A DNA stretch of 17,842 bases from a virus, in the UHGV virus genome UHGV-1912862. The stretch is one strand, 5' to 3'. Every line of letters starts with the position of its first letter. Within the stretch, counting starts at the first letter, position 1. Below the pieces are notes generated by a model, which worked only from the letters and a program-made list of their open reading frames with translations, ran no database searches and was not told the DNA's origin. This document shows, piece after piece, positions 1-17,292 of the stretch. The position numbers were made by a program, and so were the translations under genes.

Positions 1-2400
1 GAAGCCTTCGGGAAGCTGACCACAGACCCGACGTCGGGGCTGACGGCGATGGCGCGCCAGTTCCATAACGTGACGGCGGAGCAGATTGCGTATGTTGCTC
101 AGTTGCAGCGTTCCGGCGATGAAGCCGGGGCATTGCAGGCGGCGAACGAGGCCGCAACGAAAGGGTTTGATGACCAGACCCGCCGCCTGAAAGAGAACAT
201 GGGCACGCTGGAGACCTGGGCAGACAGGACTGCGCGGGCATTCAAATCCATGTGGGATGCGGTGCTGGATATTGGTCGTCCTGATACCGCGCAGGAGATG
301 CTGATTAAGGCAGAGGCTGCGTTTAAGAAAGCAGACGACATCTGGAATCTGCGCAAGGATGATTATTTTGTTAACGATGAAGCGCGGGCGCGTTACTGGG
401 ATGACCGTGAAAAGGCCCGTCTTGCGCTTGAAGCCGCCCGAAAGAAGGCTGAGCAGCAGACTCAACAGGACAAAAATGCGCAGCAGCAGAGCGATACCGA
501 AGCGTCACGGCTGAAATATACCGAAGAGGCGCAGAAGGCTTACGAACGCCTGCAGACACCGCTGGAGAAATATACCGCCCGCCAGGAGGAACTGAATAAG
601 GCACTGAAAGACGGAAAAATCCTGCAGGCAGATTACAACACGCTGATGTCGGCGGCGAAAAAGGACTATGAAGCGACGCTGAAAAAGCCGAAGCAGTCCG
701 GCGTGAAAGTGTCTGCGGGCGATCGTCAGGAAGACAGTGCTCATGCTGCCCTGCTGACGCTTCAGGCAGAACTCCGGACACTGGAGAAGCATGCCGGAGC
801 GAATGAGAAAATCAGCCAGCAGCGCCGGGATTTGNNNNNNNNNNGCTGCAGACGCCGCTGGAGAAATATACCGCCCGTCAGGAAGAACTGAATAAGGCCC
901 TGAAAGACGGAAAAATCCTGCAGGCAGATTACAACACGCTGATGGCGGCGGCGAAAAAGGACTATGAAGCGACACTGAAAAAGCCGAAACAGTCCGGCGT
1001 GAAGGTGTCTGCAGGAGAGCGTCAGGAAGACAGTGCTCATGCCGCCCTGCTGACGCTTCAGGCAGAACTCCGGACGCTGGAGAAGCATGCCGGAGCGAAT
1101 GAGAAAATCAGCCAGCAGCGCCGGGATTTGTGGAAGGCGGAAAGTCAGTTCGCGGTACTGGAGGAGGCGGCGCAACGTCGCCAGCTGTCCGCACAGGAGA
1201 AATCCCTGCTGGCGCATAAAGATGAGACGCTGGAGTACAAACGCCAGCTGGCTGCACTTGGCGATAAGGTCACGTATCAGGAGCACCTGAACGCGCTGGC
1301 GCAGCAGGCGGATAAATTCGCACAGCAGCAACGGGCAAAACGGGCCGCCATTGATGCGAAAAGCCGGGGGCTGACTGACCGGCAGGCAGCGAAGGAAGCC
1401 ACGGAACAGCGCCTGAAGGAGGAGTATGGCGATAATCCGCTGGCGCTGAATAACGTCATGTCAGAGCAGAAAAAGACCTGGGCGGCTGAAGACCAGCTTC
1501 GCGGGAACTGGATGGCAGGCCTGAAGTCCGGCTGGAGTGAGTGGGAAGAGAGCGCCACGGANNNNNNNNNNAAAAAACCGGGGGCTGACTGACCGGCAGG
1601 CAGCGCGGGAAGCCACGGAACAGCGCCTGAAGGAACAGTATGGCGATAATTCTCTGGCGCTGAATAACGTCATGTCAGAGCAGAAAAAGACCTGGGCGGC
1701 TGAAGGCCAGCTTCGCGGGAGCTGGATGGCAGGCCTGAAGTCCGGCTGGAGTGAGTGGGAAGAGAGCGCCACGGACAGTATGTCGCAGGTAAAAAGTGCA
1801 GCCACGCAGACCTTTGATGGCATTGCACAGAATATGGCGGCGATGCTGACCGGCAGTGAGCAGAACTGGCGCAGCTTCACCCGTTCCGTGCTGTCCATGA
1901 TGACAGAAATTCTGCTTAAGCAGGCAATGGTGGGGATTGTCGGGAGTATCGGCAGCGTCATTGGCGGTGCTGCCGGTGGTGGCGCATCAGTGTCAGGCGG
2001 TACAGCCATTCAGGCCGCTGCGGCGAAATTCCATTTTGCGACCGGAGGATTTACGGGAACCGGCGGCAAATATGAGCCAGCGGGGATTGTTCACCGTGGT
2101 GAATTTGTCTTCACGAAGGAGGCAACCAGCCGGATTGGCGTAGGAAATCTTTACCGGCTGATGCGCGGCTATGCCACCGGTGGTTATGTCGGTGGCACCG
2201 GAAGTCCGGCGCAAATGCGGCGTTCAGAGGGTATCAGATTTGAGCAGAACAACAACGTGGTGATTCAGAACGACGGTACGAATGGTCTGCCAGGTCCACA
2301 GATGCTGAAGGCAGTGTATGACATGGCCCGCAAGGGTGCCCGTGATGAAATTCAGGCACAGATGCGCGATGGTGGTCTGTTCTCCGGAGGTGGACGATGA
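1..2400 (+). CDS. H: Tail tape-measure protein (lambda gpH-like), 5'-truncated by the window; frame broken by scaffold joins at 835-844 and 1562-1571
   Basis: Frame is open from nt 1. Translation is Ala/Gln/Lys-rich and coiled-coil-like with a Gly-rich segment (GGAAGGGASVSGG). Stop TGA 2398-2400 overlaps the M start (ATGA). Sits directly upstream of M-L-K-I-J. Confidence 0.9.
835..844. other. Scaffold join (10 N); 845-1130 re-reads about 549-834
   Basis: N-run followed by a near-identical copy with substitutions. Confidence 0.85.
1562..1571. other. Scaffold join (10 N); about 1574-1775 re-reads about 1360-1561
   Basis: N-run followed by a near-identical copy with substitutions. Confidence 0.85.
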
Positions 2401-2726
2401 AGACCTTCCGCTGGAAAGTGAAACCCGGTATGGATGTGGCTTCGGCCCCTTCCGTCAGGAAAGTGTGCTTTGGTGATGGCTATTCCCAGCGAGCGCCTGC
2501 CGGGCTGAATGCCGACCTGAAAACGTACAGCGTGACGCTTTCTGTTCCCCGTTGGGAGGCCACGGCGCTGGAGTCGTTTCTGGCTGAGCACGGGGGCTGG
2601 AAAGCCTTTCTGTGGACGCCGCCTTATGAGTGGCGGCAGATAAAGGTGACCTGCGCAAAATGGTCGTCGCGGGTCAGTATGCTGCGTGTTGAGTTCAGCG
2701 CAGAGTTTGAACAGGTGGTGAACTGA
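2397..2726 (+). CDS. M: Tail tip protein M (lambda gpM-like), 109 aa
   Basis: ORF MKTFRWKVKPGMDVASAP...EFEQVVN. GGAGG Shine-Dalgarno at 2383-2387. Stop overlaps L start (TGATG). Length and position match lambda M. Confidence 0.92.
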   Translation: MKTFRWKVKPGMDVASAPSVRKVCFGDGYSQRAPAGLNADLKTYSVTLSVPRWEATALESFLAEHGGWKAFLWTPPYEWRQIKVTCAKWSSRVSMLRVEFSAEFEQVVN

Positions 2727-3680
2727 TGCAGAATATCCGGCAGGAAACACTGAATGAATGCACCCGTGCGGAGCAGTCGGCCAGCGNNNNNNNNNNGATA
2801 TCCGGCAGGAAACACTGAATGAATGCACCCGTGCGGAGCAGTCGGCCAGCGTGGTGCTCTGGGAAATCGACCTGACAGAGGTCGGTGGAGAACGTTATTT
2901 TTTCTGTAATGAGCAGAACGAAAAAGGTGAGCCGGTCACCTGGCAGGGGCGACAGTATCAGCCGTATCCCATTCAGGGGAGCGGTTTTGAACTGAATGGC
3001 AAAGGCACCAGTACGCGCCCCACGCTGACGGTTTCTAACCTGTACGGTATGGTCACCGGGATGGCGGAAGATATGCAGAGTCTGGTCGGCGGAACGGTGG
3101 TCCGGCGTAAGGTTTACGCCCGTTTTCTGGATGCGGTGAACTTCGTCAACGGAAACAGTTACGCCGATCCGGAGCAGGAGGTGATCAGCCGCTGGCGCAT
3201 TGAGCAGTGCAGCGAACTGAGCGCGGTGAGTGCCTCCTTTGTACTGTCCACGCCGACGGAAACGGATGGCGCTGTTTTTCCGGGACGTATCATGCTGGCC
3301 AACACCTGCACCTGGACCTATNNNNNNNNNNCTTCGTCAACGGAAACAGCGACGCCGATCCGGAGCAGGAGGTGATCAGTCGCTGGCGCATCGAGCAGTG
3401 CAGCGAACTGAGCGCGGTCAGTGCCTCCTTTGTACTGTCCACACCGACGGAAACGGACGGCGCTGTTTTTCCGGGACGTATCATGCTGGCCAACACCTGC
3501 ACCTGGACCTATCGCGGTGACGAGTGCGGTTATAGCGGTCCGGCTGTCGCGGATGAATATGACCAGCCAACGTCCGATATCACGAAGGATAAATGCAGCA
3601 AATGCCTGAGCGGTTGTAAGTTCCGCAATAACGTCGGCAACTTTGGCGGCTTCCTTTCCATTAACAAACTTTCGCAGTAA
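2726..3680 (+). CDS. L: Tail tip protein L (lambda gpL-like); contains two scaffold joins (2787-2796, 3322-3331) with re-read blocks, true length about 232 aa
   Basis: Translation MQNIRQETLNECTRAEQSASVVLWEIDLTEVGGERYFFCNEQ... ending with a Cys cluster (RGDECGY...DKCSKCLSGCKF) as in gpL. After subtracting the re-reads the length is about 700 nt. Confidence 0.92.
2787..2796. other. Scaffold join (10 N); 2798-2851 re-reads 2733-2786
   Basis: N-run followed by a near-identical copy. Confidence 0.85.
3322..3331. other. Scaffold join (10 N); 3332-3512 re-reads 3141-3321
   Basis: N-run followed by a near-identical copy with substitutions. Confidence 0.85.
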
Positions 3681-3684
3681 TCCC

Positions 3685-4428
3685 ATGACAGAGACAGAAT
3701 CAGCGATTCTGGCGCACGCCCGGCGATGTGCGCCAGCGGAGTCGTGCGGCTTCGTGGTAAGCACGCCGGAGGGGGAAAGATATTTCCCCTGCGTGAATAT
3801 CTCCGGTGAGCCGGAGGCGTATTTCCGTATGTCGCCGGAAGACTGGCTGCAGGCAGAAATGCAGGGTGAGATTGTGGCGCTGGTCCACAGCCACCCCGGT
3901 GGTCTGCCCTGGCTGAGTGAGGCCGACCGGCGGCTGCAGGTGCAGAGTGATTTGCCGTGGTGGCTGGTCTGCCGGGGGACGATTCATAAGTTCCGCTGTG
4001 TGCCGCATCTCACCGGGCGGCGCTTTGAGCACGGTGTGACGGACTGTTACACACTGTTCCGGGATGCTTATCATCTGGCGGGGATTGAGATGCCGGACTT
4101 TCATCGTGAGGATGACTGGTGGCGTAACGGCCAGAATCTCTATCTGGATAATCTGGAGGCCACAGGGCTGTATCAGGTGCCGTTGTCATCAGCACAACCG
4201 GGCGATGTGCTGCTGTGCTGTTTTGGTTCATCGGTGCCGAATCATGCCGCCATTTACTGTGGTGATGGCGAGCTGCTGCACCATATTCCTGAACAACTGA
4301 GCAAACGAGAGAGGTACACCGACAAATGGCAGCGACGCACACACACCCTCTGGCGTCACCGGGCATGGCGCGCATCTGCCTTTACGGGGATTTACAACGA
4401 TTTGGCCGCCGCATCGACCTTCGTGTGA
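3685..4428 (+). CDS. K: Tail tip assembly protein K (JAMM/MPN plus NlpC/P60-like), 247 aa; alternative internal start at 3829 would give 199 aa
   Basis: ATG at 3685 (MTETESAILAHARR...). JAMM motif HSHPGGLPWLSEAD (HxHx7Sx2D) and downstream Cys/His consistent with NlpC/P60. Its 3' end overlaps the I start out of frame by about 100 nt. Confidence 0.9.
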   Translation: MTETESAILAHARRCAPAESCGFVVSTPEGERYFPCVNISGEPEAYFRMSPEDWLQAEMQGEIVALVHSHPGGLPWLSEADRRLQVQSDLPWWLVCRGTIHKFRCVPHLTGRRFEHGVTDCYTLFRDAYHLAGIEMPDFHREDDWWRNGQNLYLDNLEATGLYQVPLSSAQPGDVLLCCFGSSVPNHAAIYCGDGELLHHIPEQLSKRERYTDKWQRRTHTLWRHRAWRASAFTGIYNDLAAASTFV

Positions 4429-5155
4429 AAACGGGGGCTGAAGCCATCCGGGCACTGGCCACACAGCTCCCGGCGTTTCGTCAGAAACTGTGCGACGGCT
4501 GGTATCAGGTACGGATTGCCGGGCGGGACGTCAGCACGTCCGGGTTAACGGCGCAGTTACATGAGACTCTGCCTGATGGCGCTGTGATTCATATTGTTNN
4601 NNNNNNNNCGCACTGGCCACACAGCTCCCGGCGTTTCGTCAGAAACTGAGCGACGGCTGGTATCAGGTACGGATTGCCGGGCAGGATGTCAGCACGTCCG
4701 GATTAACGGCGCAGTTACATGAGACTCTGCCTGATGGCGCTGTGATTCATATTGTTCCCAGAGTCGCCGGGGCCAAGTCAGGTGGTGTATTCCAGATTGT
4801 CCTGGGAGCAGCCGCCATTGCCGGATCATTCTTTACCGCCGGAGCCACCCTTGCAGCATGGGGGGCAGCCATTGGGGCCGGTGGTATGACCGGCATCCTG
4901 TTTTCTCTCGGTGCCAGTATGGTGCTCGGTGGTGTGGCGCAGATGCTGGCACCGAAAGCCCGGACGCCCACAGCGACCAGCACGGATAACGGTAAGCAGA
5001 ACACGTATTTCTCTTCACTGGATAACATGGTTGCCCAGGGCAATGTTCTGCCTGTTCTGTACGGTGAAATGCGCGTGGGGTCACGCGTGGTTTCTCAGGA
5101 GATCAGCACGGCAGACGAAGGGGATGGTGGTCAGGTTGTGGTGATTGGTCGCTGA
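4326..5155 (+). CDS. I: Tail tip assembly protein I (lambda gpI-like); contains scaffold join 4599-4608 and a re-read, true length about 222 aa
   Basis: MAATHTHPLASPGMARICLYGDLQRFGRRIDLRVKTGAEAIRALATQLPAFRQK... followed by a Gly/Ala-rich hydrophobic C-terminal half ...GDGGQVVVIGR. Stop TGA 5153-5155. Confidence 0.9.
4599..4608. other. Scaffold join (10 N); 4609-4756 re-reads 4451-4598
   Basis: N-run followed by a near-identical copy with substitutions. Confidence 0.85.
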
Positions 5156-5173
5156 TGCAAAATGTTTTATGTG

Positions 5174-5199
5174 AAACCGCCTCCGGGCGGTTTTGTCGT
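5174..5199 (+). promoter_or_regulatory. Perfect 8-bp hairpin (AAACCGCC-tccg-GGCGGTTT) followed by a T-rich tract in the I-J intergenic spacer; possible attenuator or RNA-stability element
   Basis: Inverted repeat read directly from the sequence. A second copy with the same stem and loop tgcg lies at 6064-6089 in the re-read block. Confidence 0.35.
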
Positions 5200-5215
5200 T
5201 TATGGAGCGTGAGGA

Positions 5216-5665
5216 ATGGGTAAAGGCAGCAGTAAGGGGCATACCCCGCGCGAAGCAAAGGACAACCTGAAGTCCACGCAGCTGCTGAGTGTGATCGATG
5301 CCATCAGTGAAGGGCCGATTGAAGGTCCGGTGGATGGATTAAAAAGCGTGCTGCTGAACAGTACGCCGGTGCTGGACAGTGAGGGGAATGCCAATATATC
5401 CGGCGTCACGGTGGTGTTCCGGGCAGGTGAGCAGGAGCAGACTCCGCCGGAGGGGGTTGAATCCTCCGGTTCCGAGACGGTGCTGGGTACGGAAGTGAAA
5501 TATGACACGCCGATCACCCGCACCATCACGTCGGCAAACATCGACCGTCTGCGCTTTACCTTCGGTGTGCAGGCACTGGTGGAAACCACCTCAAAGGGGG
5601 ACAGGAATCCATCGGAAGTCCGCCTGCTGGTTCAGATACAGCGTAACGGTGGCTGGGTGACGGAA
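5216..5665 (+). CDS. J: Host-specificity protein J, 5' fragment (first allele copy, cut by scaffold join 5666-5675)
   Basis: MGKGSSKGHTPREAKDNLKSTQLLSVIDAISEGPIEGPVDGLK... is about 96 percent identical to 6106-6555. GAGG Shine-Dalgarno at 5211-5214. Confidence 0.8.
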
Positions 5666-5675
5666 NNNNNNNNNN
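5666..5675. other. Scaffold join (10 N); 5676-6555 re-reads 4786-5665 (I 3' end, I-J spacer, J 5' end)
   Basis: N-run followed by an 880-nt diverged copy at constant offset 890. Confidence 0.85.
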
Positions 5676-6045
5676 CGTATTCCAGATTGTCCTGGGAGCT
5701 GCCGCCATTGCCGGATCATTCTTTACTGCCGGAGCCACCCTTGCAGCATGGGGGGCAGCCATTGGGGCCGGTGGTATGACCGGCATCCTGTTTTCTCTCG
5801 GTGCCAGTATGGTGCTCGGTGGTGTGGCGCAGATGCTGGCACCGAAAGCCAGAACTCCCCGTACACAGATAACGGATAACGGCAAACAAAACACCTATTT
5901 CTCCTCACTGGATAACATGGTTGCCCAGGGCAATGTTCTGCCCGTTCTGTTCGGTGAAATGCGCGTGGGGTCACGTGTGGCATCTCAGGAGATCAGTACA
6001 GCTGATGAAGGTGATGGTGGTGAAATCGTGGTGATTGGTCGCTGA
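5676..6045 (+). CDS. I: Tail assembly protein I, 3' fragment (second allele copy; re-read of 4786-5155 with substitutions)
   Basis: Encodes ...APKARTPRTQITDNGKQNTYFSSLDNMVAQGNVLPVLFGEMRVGSRVASQEISTADEGDGGEIVVIGR, against TPTATSTDNG...YGEM...GQVVVIGR in copy one. Confidence 0.8.
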
Positions 6046-6105
6046 TGGAACATGTTTTATATGAAACCGCCTGCGGGCGGTTTTGTCGTTTATGGAGCAT
6101 GAGGA

Positions 6106-11127
<5,022 letters not shown>

Positions 11128-11146
11128 ATTTTATAACCCATATACG

Positions 11147-11172
11147 GGCACCAGAAATGGTGCCTTTTTTTT
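11147..11172 (+). terminator. Rho-independent terminator after J (GGCACCA-gaaa-TGGTGCC then T8)
   Basis: 7-bp GC-rich stem, GAAA tetraloop and T8 run, 20 nt after the J stop. Confidence 0.65.
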
Positions 11173-11193
11173 GCAGAAAAGCGAGAGGTAATT

Positions 11194-11730
11194 ATGCGTA
11201 AATTATGTGCTGTTATTCTGTCCACAGTAGTCTGGCTGGTCGCCGCTGGTACGCCAGCGAGCGCAGCAGAGCATCAGTCCACACTAAGCGCCGGGTATCT
11301 TCAGACCCATACTGATATGCCCGGCAACGATGACCTGAAGGGCATTAACGTGAAATACCGTTATGAATTTACGGACACGCTGGGGCTGGTGACGTCATTC
11401 AGTTATGCCAATGCCAAAGATGAGCAAAAAACGCATTACAGCGATACCCGCTGGCATGAAGATTCAGTGCGTAACCGCTGGTTCAGCATGATGGCGGGGC
11501 CGTCTGTACGCGTGAATGAATGGTTCAGTGCTTATGCGATGGCAGGTGTGGCTTACAGCCGTGTTTCGACGTTCTCCGGGGATTATCTCCGCGTAACTGA
11601 CAACAAGGGGAAAACGCACGATGTGCTGACCGGAAGTGATGACGATCGCCACAGCAACACGTCTCTGGCGTGGGGAGCTGGCGTGCAGTTTAACCCGACC
11701 GAATCCGTGGCCATTGATATTGCTTATGAA
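11194..11730 (+). CDS. lom: Lom-family outer membrane protein (Ail/OmpX/Lom beta-barrel), allele copy A, 3' end lost at scaffold join 11731-11740
   Basis: MRKLCAVILSTVVWLVAAGTPASAAEHQSTLSAGYLQTHTDMPGNDDLKGINVKYRYEFTDTLG... Signal peptide plus beta-strand pattern. GAGAGG Shine-Dalgarno at 11183-11188. Confidence 0.8.
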
Positions 11731-11740
11731 NNNNNNNNNN
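11731..11740. other. Scaffold join (10 N); 11741-12332 re-reads about 11140-11730 (terminator plus lom)
   Basis: N-run followed by a diverged copy; the lom signal-peptide region differs markedly. Confidence 0.85.
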
Positions 11741-11747
11741 CAATACG

Positions 11748-11771
11748 GGCGCCAGAAATGGCGCCTTTTTT
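11748..11771 (+). terminator. Second copy of the post-J terminator (GGCGCCA-gaaa-TGGCGCC then T6) inside the re-read block
   Basis: Same hairpin as 11147-11172 with G-C/A-T compensatory changes in the stem. Confidence 0.5.
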
Positions 11772-11795
11772 ATTGCAGAAAAGCGAGAGGTAATT

Positions 11796-12395
11796 ATGCG
11801 TAAAGTTTATGCAGCCATTTTGTCCGCAGCCATCTGTCTGGCCGTATCCGGTGCGCCTGCATGGGCATCTGAGCAGCAGGCCACACTGAGCGCAGGGTAT
11901 CTTCATGCCCGTACGAACGCTCCCGGCAGCGATAATCTGAACGGGATTAACGTGAAATACCGTTATGAGTTTACGGACACGCTGGGGCTGATTACGTCAT
12001 TCAGTTATGCCAACGCTGAAGATGAGCAAAAAACGCATTACAGCGATACCCGCTGGCATGAGGATTCCGTGCGTAACCGCTGGTTCAGCGTGATGGCGGG
12101 ACCGTCTGTGCGCGTGAATGAATGGTTCAGCGCGTATGCGATGGCGGGGGTGGCTTACAGCCGTGTTTCGACCTTCTCCGGGGATTATCTGCAGGTGACC
12201 GACAACAAGGGGAAAACGCACGATGTGCTGACCGGAAGTGATGACGGTCGCCACAGCAACACGTCTCTGGCGTGGGGGGCTGGCGTGCAGTTTAACCCGA
12301 CCGAATCCGTGGCCATTGATATTGCTTATGAAGGCTCCGGCAGTGGCGACTGGCGCACTGACGGTTTCATCGTGGGTGTCGGTTATAAATTCTGA
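11796..12395 (+). CDS. lom: Lom-family outer membrane protein, allele copy B, complete, 199 aa
   Basis: MRKVYAAILSAAICLAVSGAPAWASEQQATLSAGYLHARTNAPGSDNLNGINVKYRYEFTDTLGLITSFSYANAEDEQKTHYSDTRWHEDSVRNRWF...GFIVGVGYKF. C-terminal aromatic residue typical of OMP barrels. Confidence 0.9.
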   Translation: MRKVYAAILSAAICLAVSGAPAWASEQQATLSAGYLHARTNAPGSDNLNGINVKYRYEFTDTLGLITSFSYANAEDEQKTHYSDTRWHEDSVRNRWFSVMAGPSVRVNEWFSAYAMAGVAYSRVSTFSGDYLQVTDNKGKTHDVLTGSDDGRHSNTSLAWGAGVQFNPTESVAIDIAYEGSGSGDWRTDGFIVGVGYKF

Positions 12396-12449: not shown

Positions 12450-12459
12450 TGGAGTGGAT

Positions 12460-14817
12460 ATGGCAGCAGTAAAAATCTCAGGTGTGCTGAAAGATGGTGC
12501 GGGAAAACCAATACAGAACTGCACTATTCAACTGAAGGCAAAGCGTAACAGCACCACTGTACTGGTGAACACGGTGGCCTCTGAAAATCCGGATGAAGCC
12601 GGGCGTTACAGCATGGACGTTGAGTATGGCCAGTATAGCGTTATCCTGCTGGTTGAAGGTTTTCCGCCTTCACATGCCGGGATCATTACCGTCTATGAAG
12701 GTTCCAGACCAGGTACGCTGAATGATTTTCTCGGTGCCATGACGGAAGATGATGTCATGCCGGAGGCATTGCGTCGTTTTGAGGCAATGGTGGAAGAAGC
12801 GGCACGCAACGCCGAAGCCGCCTCTCAGAGCGCAGCGGTGGCAAAGAAATCCGAAACTGCAGCGGCATCATCGAAGAACGCGGCGAAAACCTCAGAAACG
12901 AATGCAGCTAACAGCGCACAGGCGGCAGCGTCCTCGCAGACTGCATCGGCAAACTCCGCGACAGCAGCCAAAAAATCAGAAACCAACGCGAAAAACAGCG
13001 AGACAGCCGCAAAGACGAGCGAAACCAACGCAAAGTCCAGCCAGACGGCAGCGAAGACCAGCGAAACGAATGCCAAAGCCAGTGAAACTGCGGCAAAAAA
13101 CAGCCAGGTTGCAGCAGCCCAAAGCGAGAGCGCGGCAGCCGGTTCTGCGACTTCAGCAGCTGGATCAGCAACTGCTGCGGCTAACAGCCAGAAAGCTGCG
13201 AAGACGAGTGAAACTAACGCAAAGTCCAGCCAGACGGCAGCGAAGACCAGCGAAACGAATGCCAAAGCCAGCGAAACTGCGGCGAAAAGCAGTCAGGATG
13301 CAGCAGCCGAAAGCGAGAGTGCTGCAGCTGGTTCTGCAACAGCGGCAGCTAATAGCCAAAAAGCTGCAAAAACCAGTGAAACTAACGCAAAGGCGAGCGA
13401 AACAAAAGCAGCAGCCAGCGAGACAGAAGCAACGTCAGCCGCAACAAGAGCAGAGAATGCAGCCCGGATTGCAGAAGATGCCGCTGATCCTGCTTCTGTC
13501 CCTCCGCTTCCTGATATCTGGCTACCCTTGAATGATTCTCTGGAAGCGATAACAGGGTATGCGCCGGGGTATAAAACAATAACCATCGGCAGCGATGAAA
13601 TCACTGTGCCAGTTAATGGCATATGCCAATTTAGCCGGGCTTCATCTGCAACGTATATTGATAAGTCCGGGCATATTACCGTGGCAGGTAATAACGTTCC
13701 TCGTTTTGAAAAATATGGTTTGCTGATAGAGAATCAGCGAACAAACATGTTCGTAAATAGTTTTAATCCTGATGCGTGGAATAAAAGCGGTGGTATATCT
13801 GTAACATCATCAACAGATGAATTTGAGTTTAAATATGGACGTTTCACGGTAGGAAGCGATATAGCAGGAACGACAACAGGGAGAAATATATGCACAGTTG
13901 CTGGTAACAAAGGCATAGATGTGACTGGCGATGATCAGTACAGTAAAGGTCCGTATGTTACCGCGTCGTTCAGGGTAAGAAGTGATCTCAATGTTCGCGC
14001 ACGTATCCGTTTTGAACGGTATAACTCGGAAGGATACACCTTCCTTTGCGACGCCTATTTGTCATTACAGACCCATGAACTACAAATTACTGGTGGCAAT
14101 GCCCAGCTATTAACAGCAAACTTTGAAATCGACCCTGGTAGTGGATGGATATATTTTCAGGCAACACTGAAATGTCTGCCAGAATGGGGAATGGTTGGTA
14201 CGCAGCTGCAAATTGCAGCCGACAGAGCTGTGGGAGCTTTTGCAACAGGTGACTGGATAGAAGTAACCACCCCGCAATTCGAGTATGGTGCTTGTGCAAC
14301 TTCCTTCATCATAACGACAACAGAGCCAGCGACTCGTGCATCAGATTTATGTAAATTTCCGCTGATGAAAAATATGTATACCATGCCTTTTACGTTCATG
14401 GTGGAAGTCCATAAAAACTGGTTTATTTCTCATAATGCTGCACCGCGTGTCATTGATTCAGAAAATCACCAGTCCGGAGGCCCATTTATTATGGGGTTTG
14501 GTTCTTCTGGAACTATCAGTCAGGACGGTTATTCGTATTGCGATATAGGCGGGGCTAACCGACGTGTATATGAATCATGCGGAGTAAGGGATCTCGTTAT
14601 GGGATTCAGGGTTAAGGCTGACGGCATGACATGCTCATTTGCAAATAAGCATATAAGCGCTGAAACAAAAACAGTATGGAAATATATTCGTGAAGCAGCC
14701 GTGATTCGTATCGGGGGGCAAACGACGACAGGATTACGACACCTTAATGGTCATATAAAAAACCTCCGTTTCTGGAACAGAGCATTGTCAGATACGCAGC
14801 TTAAGGAATACGTATAA
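12460..14817 (+). CDS. stf: Side tail fibre protein Stf: conserved N-terminal attachment domain, Ala/Ser/Thr-rich repeat shaft, AT-rich C-terminal receptor-binding domain with a LamG-like terminal motif
   Basis: From ATG 12460: MAAVKISGVLKDGAGKPIQNCTIQLKAKRNSTTVLVNTVASENPDEAGRYSMDVEYGQYSVIL... (lambdoid Stf N-terminus). Repeats KTSETNAK(A/S)S(E/Q)TAAK. C-terminus ...GHIKNLRFWNRALSDTQLKEYV. The ORF-track start at 12454 is GTG; I prefer ATG 12460. Confidence 0.85.
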   Translation: MAAVKISGVLKDGAGKPIQNCTIQLKAKRNSTTVLVNTVASENPDEAGRYSMDVEYGQYSVILLVEGFPPSHAGIITVYEGSRPGTLNDFLGAMTEDDVMPEALRRFEAMVEEAARNAEAASQSAAVAKKSETAAASSKNAAKTSETNAANSAQAAASSQTASANSATAAKKSETNAKNSETAAKTSETNAKSSQTAAKTSETNAKASETAAKNSQVAAAQSESAAAGSATSAAGSATAAANSQKAAKTSETNAKSSQTAAKTSETNAKASETAAKSSQDAAAESESAAAGSATAAANSQKAAKTSETNAKASETKAAASETEATSAATRAENAARIAEDAADPASVPPLPDIWLPLNDSLEAITGYAPGYKTITIGSDEITVPVNGICQFSRASSATYIDKSGHITVAGNNVPRFEKYGLLIENQRTNMFVNSFNPDAWNKSGGISVTSSTDEFEFKYGRFTVGSDIAGTTTGRNICTVAGNKGIDVTGDDQYSKGPYVTASFRVRSDLNVRARIRFERYNSEGYTFLCDAYLSLQTHELQITGGNAQLLTANFEIDPGSGWIYFQATLKCLPEWGMVGTQLQIAADRAVGAFATGDWIEVTTPQFEYGACATSFIITTTEPATRASDLCKFPLMKNMYTMPFTFMVEVHKNWFISHNAAPRVIDSENHQSGGPFIMGFGSSGTISQDGYSYCDIGGANRRVYESCGVRDLVMGFRVKADGMTCSFANKHISAETKTVWKYIREAAVIRIGGQTTTGLRHLNGHIKNLRFWNRALSDTQLKEYV
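13031..13400 (+). repeat. Imperfect in-frame tandem repeats (about 170-190 nt units) within the stf shaft
   Basis: caaagtccagccagacggcagcgaagaccagcgaaacgaatgccaaagcc recurs at 13031 and 13220. Shorter KTSETNAK motifs span about 12890-13400. Confidence 0.6.
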
Positions 14818-15086
14818 TGCGAGATATAACATTACGATTCGATAACAGAGAACAGTTTAACGCAATTGTATATGACAGTGGCCTGTTCAGTCTTGAAGAA
14901 GAAAACGGGGTTCTTGTTGATGTTATTGGCTGCATTATCGATTACGAGGAGCCAGAAAACGAAAGATGTACAGGCATTGATCGCGGTGGTTTTTTCGTAA
15001 ACATGAGGATTGTTGATAGCAGTAAAAACATATCTTCTTTAATGCCTTTCATTACGACAGATCAGCATGTAAGGACATGGGCTTAA
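14817..15086 (+). CDS. Hypothetical small acidic protein (89 aa), translationally coupled to stf (TAATG overlap)
   Basis: ATG 14817 overlaps the stf stop. AT-rich like its neighbours. No motif recognised: MRDITLRFDNREQFNAIVYDSGLFSLEEENGVLVDVIGCIIDYEEPENERC... Confidence 0.5.
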   Translation: MRDITLRFDNREQFNAIVYDSGLFSLEEENGVLVDVIGCIIDYEEPENERCTGIDRGGFFVNMRIVDSSKNISSLMPFITTDQHVRTWA

Positions 15087-15098
15087 TGGAGTAAGACA

Positions 15099-16139
15099 AT
15101 GGTTACAAAAACAGTAATTCCTGATGACATCAAAACGCTAAAATCCGATGTTAGTAAACTAAAAACTGATCAAGGAAGCTATGCAACAAAATCATATGTA
15201 GACAATAAAACAACATGGAATAGTTATTGCAATGTAATCTATGATCAAAAGGCATTGCCGACCACTGGAACTATATTTAGCGGTAAGATTCACTTGTCAA
15301 ATAAGACAGGAGAAACCGAAAACGCTTATAGTGAGATGTACACCAGAAAAAATATTGACGGTACAAAAGATACAATGACAAGGATTGTCACACACAATGG
15401 AACAAAAGGTATCTTTTGGGATTTTAGCGATCTTTACGGCGGAACATTAATTTTTCCAGGCAGTGATGGTTACCTTAAGATGGGGAACTGTCTCATGTCG
15501 TATGGTGTGCGGGGAAGTAACGCGCTTATTAAGTTTGACTGCACAGACACATTACAAATCAAATATGCCAATCATGGGTCAACCATGACATTAAACACAC
15601 AGGGGACCGCTCATTCTGGCGCTACTACTAGTTTGTGGGGTAACTCTACCCGTCCGGTTGTATATGAAGTTGGTGCTGATGGTGGCGCGTATATGTTCTA
15701 TGCGCAGAAAAATACCGATAACACCTATATGTTAAGCGTTAATGGTGCATGTCATGCCACCGCATTTAACCAGCATTCCGACCGGGATCTGAAAGACAAC
15801 ATTCAGGTGATCGATAATGCAACCGACCGCATCCGTAAAATGAACGGCTATACATACACGCTTAAAGAAAACGGTATGCCCTATGCAGGTGTCATTGCAC
15901 AGGAAGCTCTGGAAGCAATCCCAGAAGTTGTCGGTTCCGCAATGAAATATCAGGACGGTGCAAGCGGATCGGAAGGTGAAGAAGGTGAACGTTATTACAC
16001 AGTAGATTATTCTGGTGTTACTGGCTTGCTTGTTCAGGTAGCCAGAGAGTCAGACGACAGAATAACAGTACTGGAAGAAGAAAACGCAGAATTAAGGCAA
16101 AGATTATCTGCAATTGAGGCGACGCTTGCGTCTAAATAA
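15099..16139 (+). CDS. Tail fibre/tailspike-like protein with C-terminal intramolecular chaperone (peptidase S74 / endosialidase-chaperone-type) domain, 346 aa
   Basis: GGAGTAAG Shine-Dalgarno before ATG 15099. C-terminal region ...NQHSDRDLKDNIQVIDNATDRIRKMNGYTYTLKE..YAGVIAQEALEAIPEVV...LEEENAELRQRLSAIEATL carries the SDxxLK and G(V/F)IAQE hallmarks plus a terminal coiled coil. AT-rich. Confidence 0.75.
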   Translation: MVTKTVIPDDIKTLKSDVSKLKTDQGSYATKSYVDNKTTWNSYCNVIYDQKALPTTGTIFSGKIHLSNKTGETENAYSEMYTRKNIDGTKDTMTRIVTHNGTKGIFWDFSDLYGGTLIFPGSDGYLKMGNCLMSYGVRGSNALIKFDCTDTLQIKYANHGSTMTLNTQGTAHSGATTSLWGNSTRPVVYEVGADGGAYMFYAQKNTDNTYMLSVNGACHATAFNQHSDRDLKDNIQVIDNATDRIRKMNGYTYTLKENGMPYAGVIAQEALEAIPEVVGSAMKYQDGASGSEGEEGERYYTVDYSGVTGLLVQVARESDDRITVLEEENAELRQRLSAIEATLASK

Positions 16140-16701: not shown

Positions 16702-17292
16702 TTATATGTCAGGTGTCTGAAGTTTTGCTTTGGCTCTTAAAATGGTTTGCCGCGAGGTTTTGAATTCCCGGGCAATGGCACTTATACTTACACCTGACTT
16801 AATTCGTTCGAATACCACCTGTTTCTGTTCTTCATTTAACACAGGTGGTCGACCAAAACGTTTCCCTGCGCCGCGGGCTCTTACTATCCCGGAATGAGTG
16901 CGTTCAAGTAAAAGGTCTCGTTCAAATTCAGCGACTGCTGAAATTACTTGCATCATCATTTTTCCTGTTGGACTGGTCAGGTCAATGCCCCCCAATGCTA
17001 AGCAATGCACTCTGATACCTGTTTCGGTCAGTTGTTCCACTGTTTTCCTGATATCCATTGCATTACAACCAAGGCGATCCAGTTTTGTCACAATCAATTG
17101 ATCACCACATTTCAGGCGAGCAAGCAACCGGTTAAAACCAGGACGCTCACTGGTTGCTGCTGAGCCGCTAATGTGTTCTTCGATTATTTGCTGAGATTTG
17201 ATGTTAAAACCTGCACTTTCGATTTCCCGGCGTTGATTTTCGGTGGTCTGATCCAGCGTTGATATCCGACAGTAAGCAAAAATTCGAGACAT
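16702..17292 (-). CDS. pin: Serine recombinase of the DNA-invertase family (Pin/Gin/Hin-like), 196 aa
   Basis: [20 protein letters not shown]... has the resolvase/invertase N-terminal catalytic motif (Ser11) and a C-terminal HTH ([21 protein letters not shown]). Position after stf/tfa and length 196 aa match the PinR/PinQ arrangement of Rac/Qin prophages as I recall it. Confidence 0.88.

Follow-up and report, generated by a model that had tools for sequence, protein, structure and literature searches.

The side tail fibre (Stf) encoded on UHGV virus genome UHGV-1912862, a 17,842-nucleotide (nt) stretch of DNA referred to below as the window, ends in a domain, D2, that belongs to the Laminin_G_3 (LamG_3)/concanavalin-A-like (ConA-like) jelly-roll family. 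This assignment is sound, since transitive homology, profile–profile comparison, predicted structure and the Pfam matches of the protein's relatives all lead to it. D2 is preceded by a second β-sandwich domain, D1, and the gene is followed by a small open reading frame (ORF) of 89 amino acids (aa) with which D1–D2 fibres are almost invariably paired. The explanation we consider likely for the whole is that Stf is a lambda-like prophage side fibre with a lectin-type D1–D2 head and a partner protein. Lectin-fold tips are well known among phage fibres, and the fold call mainly improves the annotation of Stf; the more interesting lead is a portable three-gene cassette.

The sequence-only reading had held that the C-terminal end of Stf resembles the terminal motif of LamG domains. 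The translation does end exactly in ...GLRHLNGHIKNLRFWNRALSDTQLKEYV, and family, profile and structure evidence all agree with that resemblance. The profile search it proposed gave a mixed answer. Pfam Laminin_G_3 (PF13385) does align to the C-terminus of Stf, at 20.3–20.4 bits (E 6e-4 to 1e-3), but it covers the last 40 residues only (profile positions 112–150 of 151) and stays below the gathering threshold of 27.6 bits, so that on its own the direct match is no more than suggestive. The score falls short because the N-terminal and central strands of D2 have diverged. Relatives bridge this gap. A phmmer search with Stf aa 622–787 against 1.84 billion representatives returned 79 proteins at E ≤ 1e-3, among them canonical secreted multi-LamG_3 proteins (P0177, at E 1.3e-13, and P0180) that score 1e-41 and 2.5e-86, respectively, against Pfam Laminin_G_3. 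This exhaustive search was the informative one; two of three word-index homologue searches gave mostly short fragments. Several full-length phage-fibre homologues exceed the PF13385 threshold outright (P0178, 44.8 bits; P0215, 34.2; P0169, 31.3), and Pfam already marks close variants of the Stf fibre family (P0137, P0139, P0148). When 27 diverse family members were compared with Pfam, 23 matched PF13385 at E ≤ 0.01, the best at 3.3e-13, and the only other families encountered were Pentaxin, which is also ConA-like, and one weak Adeno_shaft match (E 0.0046). Profile–profile comparison of the D2 family alignment with 15 canonical LamG_3 domains in hhalign gave 96.5% probability and E 9.8e-10, over the C-terminal 70 columns only, while the D2 family profile picked out pentraxin and the binding domain (Hc) of BoNT/D from the PDB sequences at E about 2e-3.

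Structure prediction converges on the same fold. A first AlphaFold2 (AF2) run, covering the full C-terminal region of 425 aa and based on a shallow alignment of 33 sequences, modelled D1 well but left D2 at pLDDT 50–77 and the first 70 residues disordered; Foldseek TM-scores for this two-domain model were low (0.13–0.33) because the arrangement of the domains was uncertain. D2 was resolved by a run on D2 alone with a more diverse alignment, which reached pLDDT 86.3 and pTM 0.80. Against the PDB, this model yielded 138 Foldseek matches at E ≤ 1e-3, and the 50 of them that were listed are all ConA-like, with TMq 0.49–0.69 and probability 1.00. They include the LG domain of PAPP-A, BACOVA_03559 (4dqa), pentraxins, the sialic-acid-binding CBM40, BoNT HCN, and the LG domains of agrin and neurexin. 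At clan level, then, the predicted D2 is a jelly-roll β-sandwich that superposes on known ConA-like members, the outcome that the sequence-only reading had anticipated for a structural search.

With Laminin_G_3, D2 has in common both the predicted β-sandwich and the C-terminal signature G.(I/L).(N/D)(L/V)R(I/F)WNRALS..(E/Q)(I/L), and TMq against the solved family examples is 0.6–0.69. It differs from that family in its setting: here a phage fibre carries it as the terminal domain, after another jelly roll. Conservation within D2 is uneven. Residues 752–781 of Stf form its most conserved segment, with a column entropy of 0.9–1.7 bits in the 27-sequence family alignment, and the first ~47 residues of D2, the TRA(S/A)D junction included, are moderately conserved. 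The centre (Stf 669–748), in contrast, is hypervariable, with a mean identity of 0.20 versus 0.41 and 0.53 in its flanks; in several E. coli variants both ends of D2 are kept and the middle is wholly replaced. This is what would be expected if a constant structural core bore variable, putatively ligand-facing loops, and also if the module were exchanged by recombination at the conserved joints. The terminal motif of this allele has peculiarities of its own: residue 765 (14764–14766), within the HL(F)GH segment, is Asn in place of the Phe found in nearly all phage-fibre relatives, and RFWNRAL stands where the relatives have RIWHK(A/E)L. With these two features, the Stf motif departs less from the canonical LamG_3 consensus than do the motifs of most members of its own family.

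The boundary of the domain required revision. The sequence-only reading had taken 14212–14817 as the C-terminal domain; in frame, 14212 is Stf residue 587, and the interval (aa 587–787) contains D2 but also the last strands of D1, which reach to about aa 626. Its observation of several cysteines in this part holds, at five (residues 614, 633, 696, 709 and 727).

D1 belongs to a different family. It matches NCBIfam NF048003, the GTA head-spike-fibre family, at 47.9 bits against a curated cutoff of 36 (E 2.2e-12), and the match spans nearly the whole profile (Stf aa 424–629, profile positions 1–181 of 182). In the PDB sequence set, D1 aligns to the RcGTA head fibre Rcc01080 (E 0.0015). Rcc01080 binds capsular polysaccharide in direct binding assays, and its AlphaFold model has been termed lectin-like (PMC10218006); on the capsid spike it is a single flexible subunit (PMC7296036). 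The homology with D1 includes the conserved TRA(A/S)D junction. Unlike Stf, however, Rcc01080 stops ~40 residues past this junction and lacks a full LamG-like D2, and D1 here rides on a tail fibre. The available Rcc01080 structure (PDB 6tb9, chain F3) resolves residues 2–10 alone.

The sequence-only reading further proposed that this head folds without an S74 chaperone or Tfa. In the literal sense the proposal stands: Stf has no PF13884 (Peptidase_S74) match at E ≤ 1 in Pfam, and no Tfa-type match was found for the ORFs downstream of Stf in Pfam, PHROGs or NCBIfam. Folding of Stf without any helper is nevertheless not supported, given the 89-aa ORF coupled to its 3′ end. Among IMG/VR loci that encode a D2 relative, a homologue of this ORF follows the fibre stop codon at an offset of 0, −3 or −7 nt in 80 of 80 close loci and in nine of 10 more distant ones, the single exception being a 176-kb contig that carries the most divergent D2 variant. 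Conversely, a LamG-ended fibre lies immediately upstream in all 62 of the 62 loci that encode the small protein, so that the linkage holds in 151 of the 152 viral loci examined when both directions are combined. The two proteins also vary together: the small protein is 97–99% identical where D1–D2 is 97–99% identical, and 29–34% identical where D1–D2 is 36–59% identical. The gene that follows the small ORF varies independently of D1–D2. As judged from these sequence comparisons, the 89-aa protein appears to be translationally coupled to Stf and an obligate partner of D1–D2 fibres. Because it is linked to D1–D2 in both directions and co-varies with it, the protein is likely to serve the fibre as a dedicated partner, whether it chaperones assembly or stays on as a subunit or adaptor. 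Searches gave it no sequence relative in the PDB at E ≤ 10, and in Pfam no family below an E of about 0.05; it is a candidate founder of a new family of fibre chaperones or adaptors.

Upstream of its head, Stf has the anatomy of a lambda-type side fibre (Table 1), with the N-terminal prophage tail fibre domain (PF08400) of such proteins. Its true start is probably the ATG at 12460, because homologues begin at MAAVKISG. Stf matches the PHROGs family phrog_1419, annotated as a tail protein, from end to end (E = 0), and its gene shares 94–98% DNA identity with the genes annotated as Stf in phages PhiR11_1, PhiR47_1 and PhiR55_1. The allele is present in 141 of 5426 complete E. coli genomes; its name there, given by PGAP and used in RefSeq, refers to the N-terminal domain alone ("prophage tail fiber N-terminal domain-containing protein"). 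The shaft is probably an α-helical coiled coil, to go by its heptads, and is presumably variable in length. Its DNA holds the sole tandem repeats of the gene (period 21/42/189 nt, 12979–13453); none lies beyond 13453, in agreement with the sequence-only reading, which had found none of the Gly/His/Ser-rich repeats of lambda Stf in the C-terminal part. A conserved PLPD(I/V)W linker connects the shaft to the two C-terminal globular domains.

The D1–D2 module is not confined to lambda-like fibres. It ends fibres with N-termini of the lambda Stf, T5 pb1/LtfA (KS_S14, mar004NP2) and P2 gpH types, as well as a J-like Phage-tail_3 protein, Nonagvirus JenP1 gp23 and Drexlerviridae swan01 gp02. The lateral-fibre loci of these phage groups are hypervariable, and O-antigen glycans are regarded as the primary, non-essential receptors of their products (PMC8594841). 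Drawing on the ConA-like family of D2, the capsule binding by Rcc01080 and this lateral-fibre biology, we rate it as rather probable, by analogy, that D1–D2 is a lectin-type head that reversibly binds surface polysaccharide. The lambda-type N-terminal domain anchors Stf to the tail tip, and the 32-heptad shaft leads to two β-sandwich domains per chain. In such a mechanism, these domains would touch the cell first, holding reversibly to a polysaccharide on its surface (O-antigen, capsule or a glycan of that kind), and the phage would then commit via its J tip protein. Specificity would reside in the hypervariable centre of D2 and in the variable D1, while the first and last strands of D2, terminal motif included, would serve both as the conserved core and as the joints for module exchange between phages. 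The coupled ~90-aa protein would probably act as an assembly chaperone or a retained partner of the head. Together with the 89-aa ORF, D1–D2 behaves as a self-contained module, natural on at least five virion types. The pair is a candidate plug-in receptor-binding unit for engineering or predicting host range, provided that the small ORF goes along.

Other known systems offer further comparisons. Stf has the PF08400 anchor of lambda Stf, likewise comes after J and lom in gene order, and has the general role of an accessory side fibre, whereas its C-terminal two thirds are unrelated to those of lambda: a heptad shaft and two lectin-type domains replace the lambda-type tip, and in place of Tfa, of which no homologue is present here, stands the unrelated 89-aa ORF. 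Unlike S74 endosialidase-type fibres, Stf contains no S74 domain; the domain occurs instead in a separate fibre protein, fibre 2, encoded two genes downstream. The top Foldseek match of the two-domain model is the fibre of porcine adenovirus 4 NADC-1 (2wsu; TMq 0.20, about 9% identity), likewise an attachment fibre that ends in two lectin-fold jelly rolls, in its case tandem galectin domains; this is an analogy only, the virus being eukaryotic and the fold galectin, not of the LamG subfamily. Gp46 of the Pseudomonas phages Pa193 and E217 (9b45, 8env) differs in being a myovirus baseplate component of 14% identity, for which homology is not established. LamG/ConA-like domains as such are an established component of phage fibres (PMC11058221).

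Fibre 2 adds a third part to the module. It has no recognizable virion-anchor domain and ends in an S74 intramolecular chaperone (aa 227–278, 15777–15932; Pfam E 6e-14). Its N-terminal peptide, MVTKTVIPDDIKTLK..., of ~35 residues with the pattern M[VA]T.T[VI]IP.DI..LK, is common to lambdoid, T5-like, Nonagvirus and Drexlerviridae phages and one unclassified contig, and the remainder of the protein varies. The peptide is conserved over five or more virion types. The phage-database matches to this peptide that were inspected all directly follow a D1–D2 fibre and its small ORF. Other copies of fibre 2 were located at 3961–5512 in L032, 4501–5556 in L209 and 3194–3868 in L210. Its tip and chaperone are exchangeable, being of the S74 type here and of the Tfa type in L032, and the N-terminus is kept. 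Since all these virions share no parts other than the proteins of the cassette itself, a reasonable hypothesis is that fibre 2 attaches to the D1–D2 fibre or to the small protein. The result would be a branched fibre like that of phage DT57C, for which branched lateral fibres are documented (PMC4728585, PMC10713586). The LtfA/LtfB fibres of DT57C and DT571/2 resemble the present arrangement in that two tandem fibre genes occur with a virion anchor on the first only, and D1–D2 fibres are also found on T5-like phages with a pb1/LtfA-type N-terminus. The two systems differ in that no sequence relation of LtfA/LtfB to D1–D2 or to the small ORF is established, and that the evidence for attachment of fibre 2 here is gene linkage.

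Extending this line of thought, we tentatively entertain, as somewhat less probable than not, a fuller scheme in which the LamG-ended fibre, the ~90-aa partner and the anchor-less fibre 2 travel together, as a portable cassette of three parts, among siphoviruses that are not related to one another (lambda-like, T5-like, Nonagvirus, Drexlerviridae). The small protein would then represent a new class of chaperone or adaptor, and D1–D2 would both bind a glycan and carry an exchangeable fibre 2, yielding a branched side fibre of dual specificity. If the branched fibre is real, the LtfA/LtfB principle would extend from T5-like phages to lambdoid prophages, with its parts named. The strict pairing with a ~90-aa protein and the portable three-gene cassette both appear undescribed in the searchable open literature; in open-access text, no description was found of this Stf type, of its small partner, or of the fibres of the PhiR ECOR prophages.

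The same observations feed the strongest alternative to a receptor-binding head, namely that D1–D2 and the 89-aa protein are mainly a docking platform for fibre 2 in a branched, LtfA/LtfB-like fibre, with the LamG fold providing a protein–protein contact. Such a role would account for an anchor-less fibre 2 whose N-terminal peptide is nonetheless conserved across phage groups, for its constant place behind the D1–D2 fibre and small ORF, and for the swapping of its tip and chaperone type behind a constant N-terminus. It is also in keeping with the DT57C precedent, and with the fact that D1–D2, the linker and the small protein alone recur in every one of these virion types. However, fibre 2 is absent from entire classes of D1–D2 fibres (those of 686–690 aa and of 598 aa) that keep the small ORF, which means that the module must have a role besides docking. 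Moreover, D1 and the centre of D2 vary between phages whose fibre 2 proteins are 71–79% identical, which fits host adaptation better than a fixed interface, and it is from gene linkage that the attachment itself is deduced. Docking as the main function is thus unlikely, though far from negligible, and it is not mutually exclusive with receptor binding by D1–D2.

Catalysis is a much poorer prospect. Some ConA-like superfamily members are glucanases or polysaccharide lyases, and jelly rolls of that kind in D1–D2 would make the fibre a depolymerase. The best sequence and structure matches are, however, all non-catalytic binders (LamG_3, pentraxin, CBM40, BoNT HCN, LG domains), and no enzyme family is significant in Pfam or NCBIfam; we set this activity aside as very improbable. 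The sub-threshold, 40-residue Pfam match could by itself have been a chance resemblance on an unrelated β-rich fibre tip, a reading so improbable as to be refuted by the transitive matches to LamG_3 proteins at E 1e-13, the hhalign probability of 96.5%, the PF13385 matches of 23 of 27 relatives, and a confident D2 model for which every structural neighbour listed is ConA-like.

Several points do weigh against a glycan-binding LamG head. On the side of the fold, the direct PF13385 score of Stf is under the gathering threshold (20.3 vs. 27.6 bits), the hhalign alignment of the D2 family is limited to the C-terminal 70 columns, and the two-domain AF2 run modelled D2 poorly (pLDDT 50–77), a good model requiring the deeper alignment. 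On the side of function, LamG folds also mediate protein–protein contacts, as in neurexin and PAPP-A, and the fold therefore does not prove lectin activity. In addition, the records of relatives such as PhiR11_1 give rough K-12 and C strains as the hosts they were grown on; the fibre is therefore probably dispensable on some hosts, an observation that is silent on what the fibre binds.

Table 1. The Stf fibre, its domains and the genes that follow it; positions in the window (nt), with Stf residues where applicable
Feature	Position	Stf residues	Strand	Basis and remarks
Side tail fibre (Stf) ORF	12454-14817		+	787 aa from GTG; translation ends ...GLRHLNGHIKNLRFWNRALSDTQLKEYV*
N-terminal virion anchor, lambda Stf type	12466-12855	5-134	+	Pfam phage_tail_N PF08400, E 6.3e-66
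Ala/Ser/Thr-rich shaft	12811-13488	~120-345	+	32 consecutive heptads (KTSETNA KSSQTAA ...)
D1, β-sandwich homologous to RcGTA head-spike fibre	13606-14331	~385-626	+	NCBIfam NF048003
D2, Laminin_G_3/ConA-like jelly roll	14332-14814	~627-787	+	AF2, Foldseek, hhalign, PF13385 family matches
Terminal motif GLRHLNGHIKNLRFWNRALSDTQLKEYV	14731-14814		+	Last β-strand and short helix; Pfam partial alignment, lowest column entropy of the family alignment (0.9-1.2 bits)
89-aa ORF	14817-15086		+	ATG overlaps Stf stop codon (TAATG); phrog_1361, E 1e-30, function unknown in PHROGs
Second tail-fibre protein (fibre 2), 346 aa	15099-16139		+	phrog_4563 tail fiber; Peptidase_S74
Small predicted membrane protein, 107 aa	16151-16474		+	phrog_1443, E 1e-57, function unknown in PHROGs
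Pin/Gin-type serine invertase	16702-17292		-	Resolvase and HTH_7; PinR annotated at the same place in Tritos

Beyond fibre 2 lie two further genes. Homologues of the 107-aa membrane protein begin at MDITPF (16181), and copies 88–94% identical occur in PhiR11_1, PhiR47_1 and Tritos. In lambdoid relatives this gene is kept after the fibre genes with or without fibre 2 (e.g., 4783–5079 in L013), and it may be a moron or a gene of the exclusion type. The Pin-like invertase raised the possibility of an invertible fibre segment, which was rejected: a search for inverted-repeat crossover sites around the fibre genes gave none that convinces, the best pairs being 16–35 nt long with 70–94% complementarity and lying at implausible positions. 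Nothing obvious thus marks the fibre tip as switchable here, and the invertase may be an orphan.

The window as a whole is the scaffolded tail region of a lambda-like E. coli prophage, with tape-measure fragments, M, L, K, J fragments and Lom. It contains 12 runs of exactly 10 N (at 835, 1562, 2787, 3322, 4599, 5666, 7651, 8115, 8679, 9731, 10484 and 11731), all confined to 835–11740; from 11741 to the end, the Stf region included, the sequence is uninterrupted. The first two thirds consist of short contigs on these 10-N spacers, with redundant near-duplicate J fragments and two lom copies, and look as if several similar lambdoid prophages had been collapsed together, or broken up, in assembly. 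Within the ORF at 8171–10507, one J stretch of ~50 aa occurs twice. The two lom (Ail/Lom) frames lie in tandem on the + strand, at 11194–11793 and 11796–12395, and since the first is broken by the N run at 11731–11740, what looks like a duplication has probably been produced by scaffolding.

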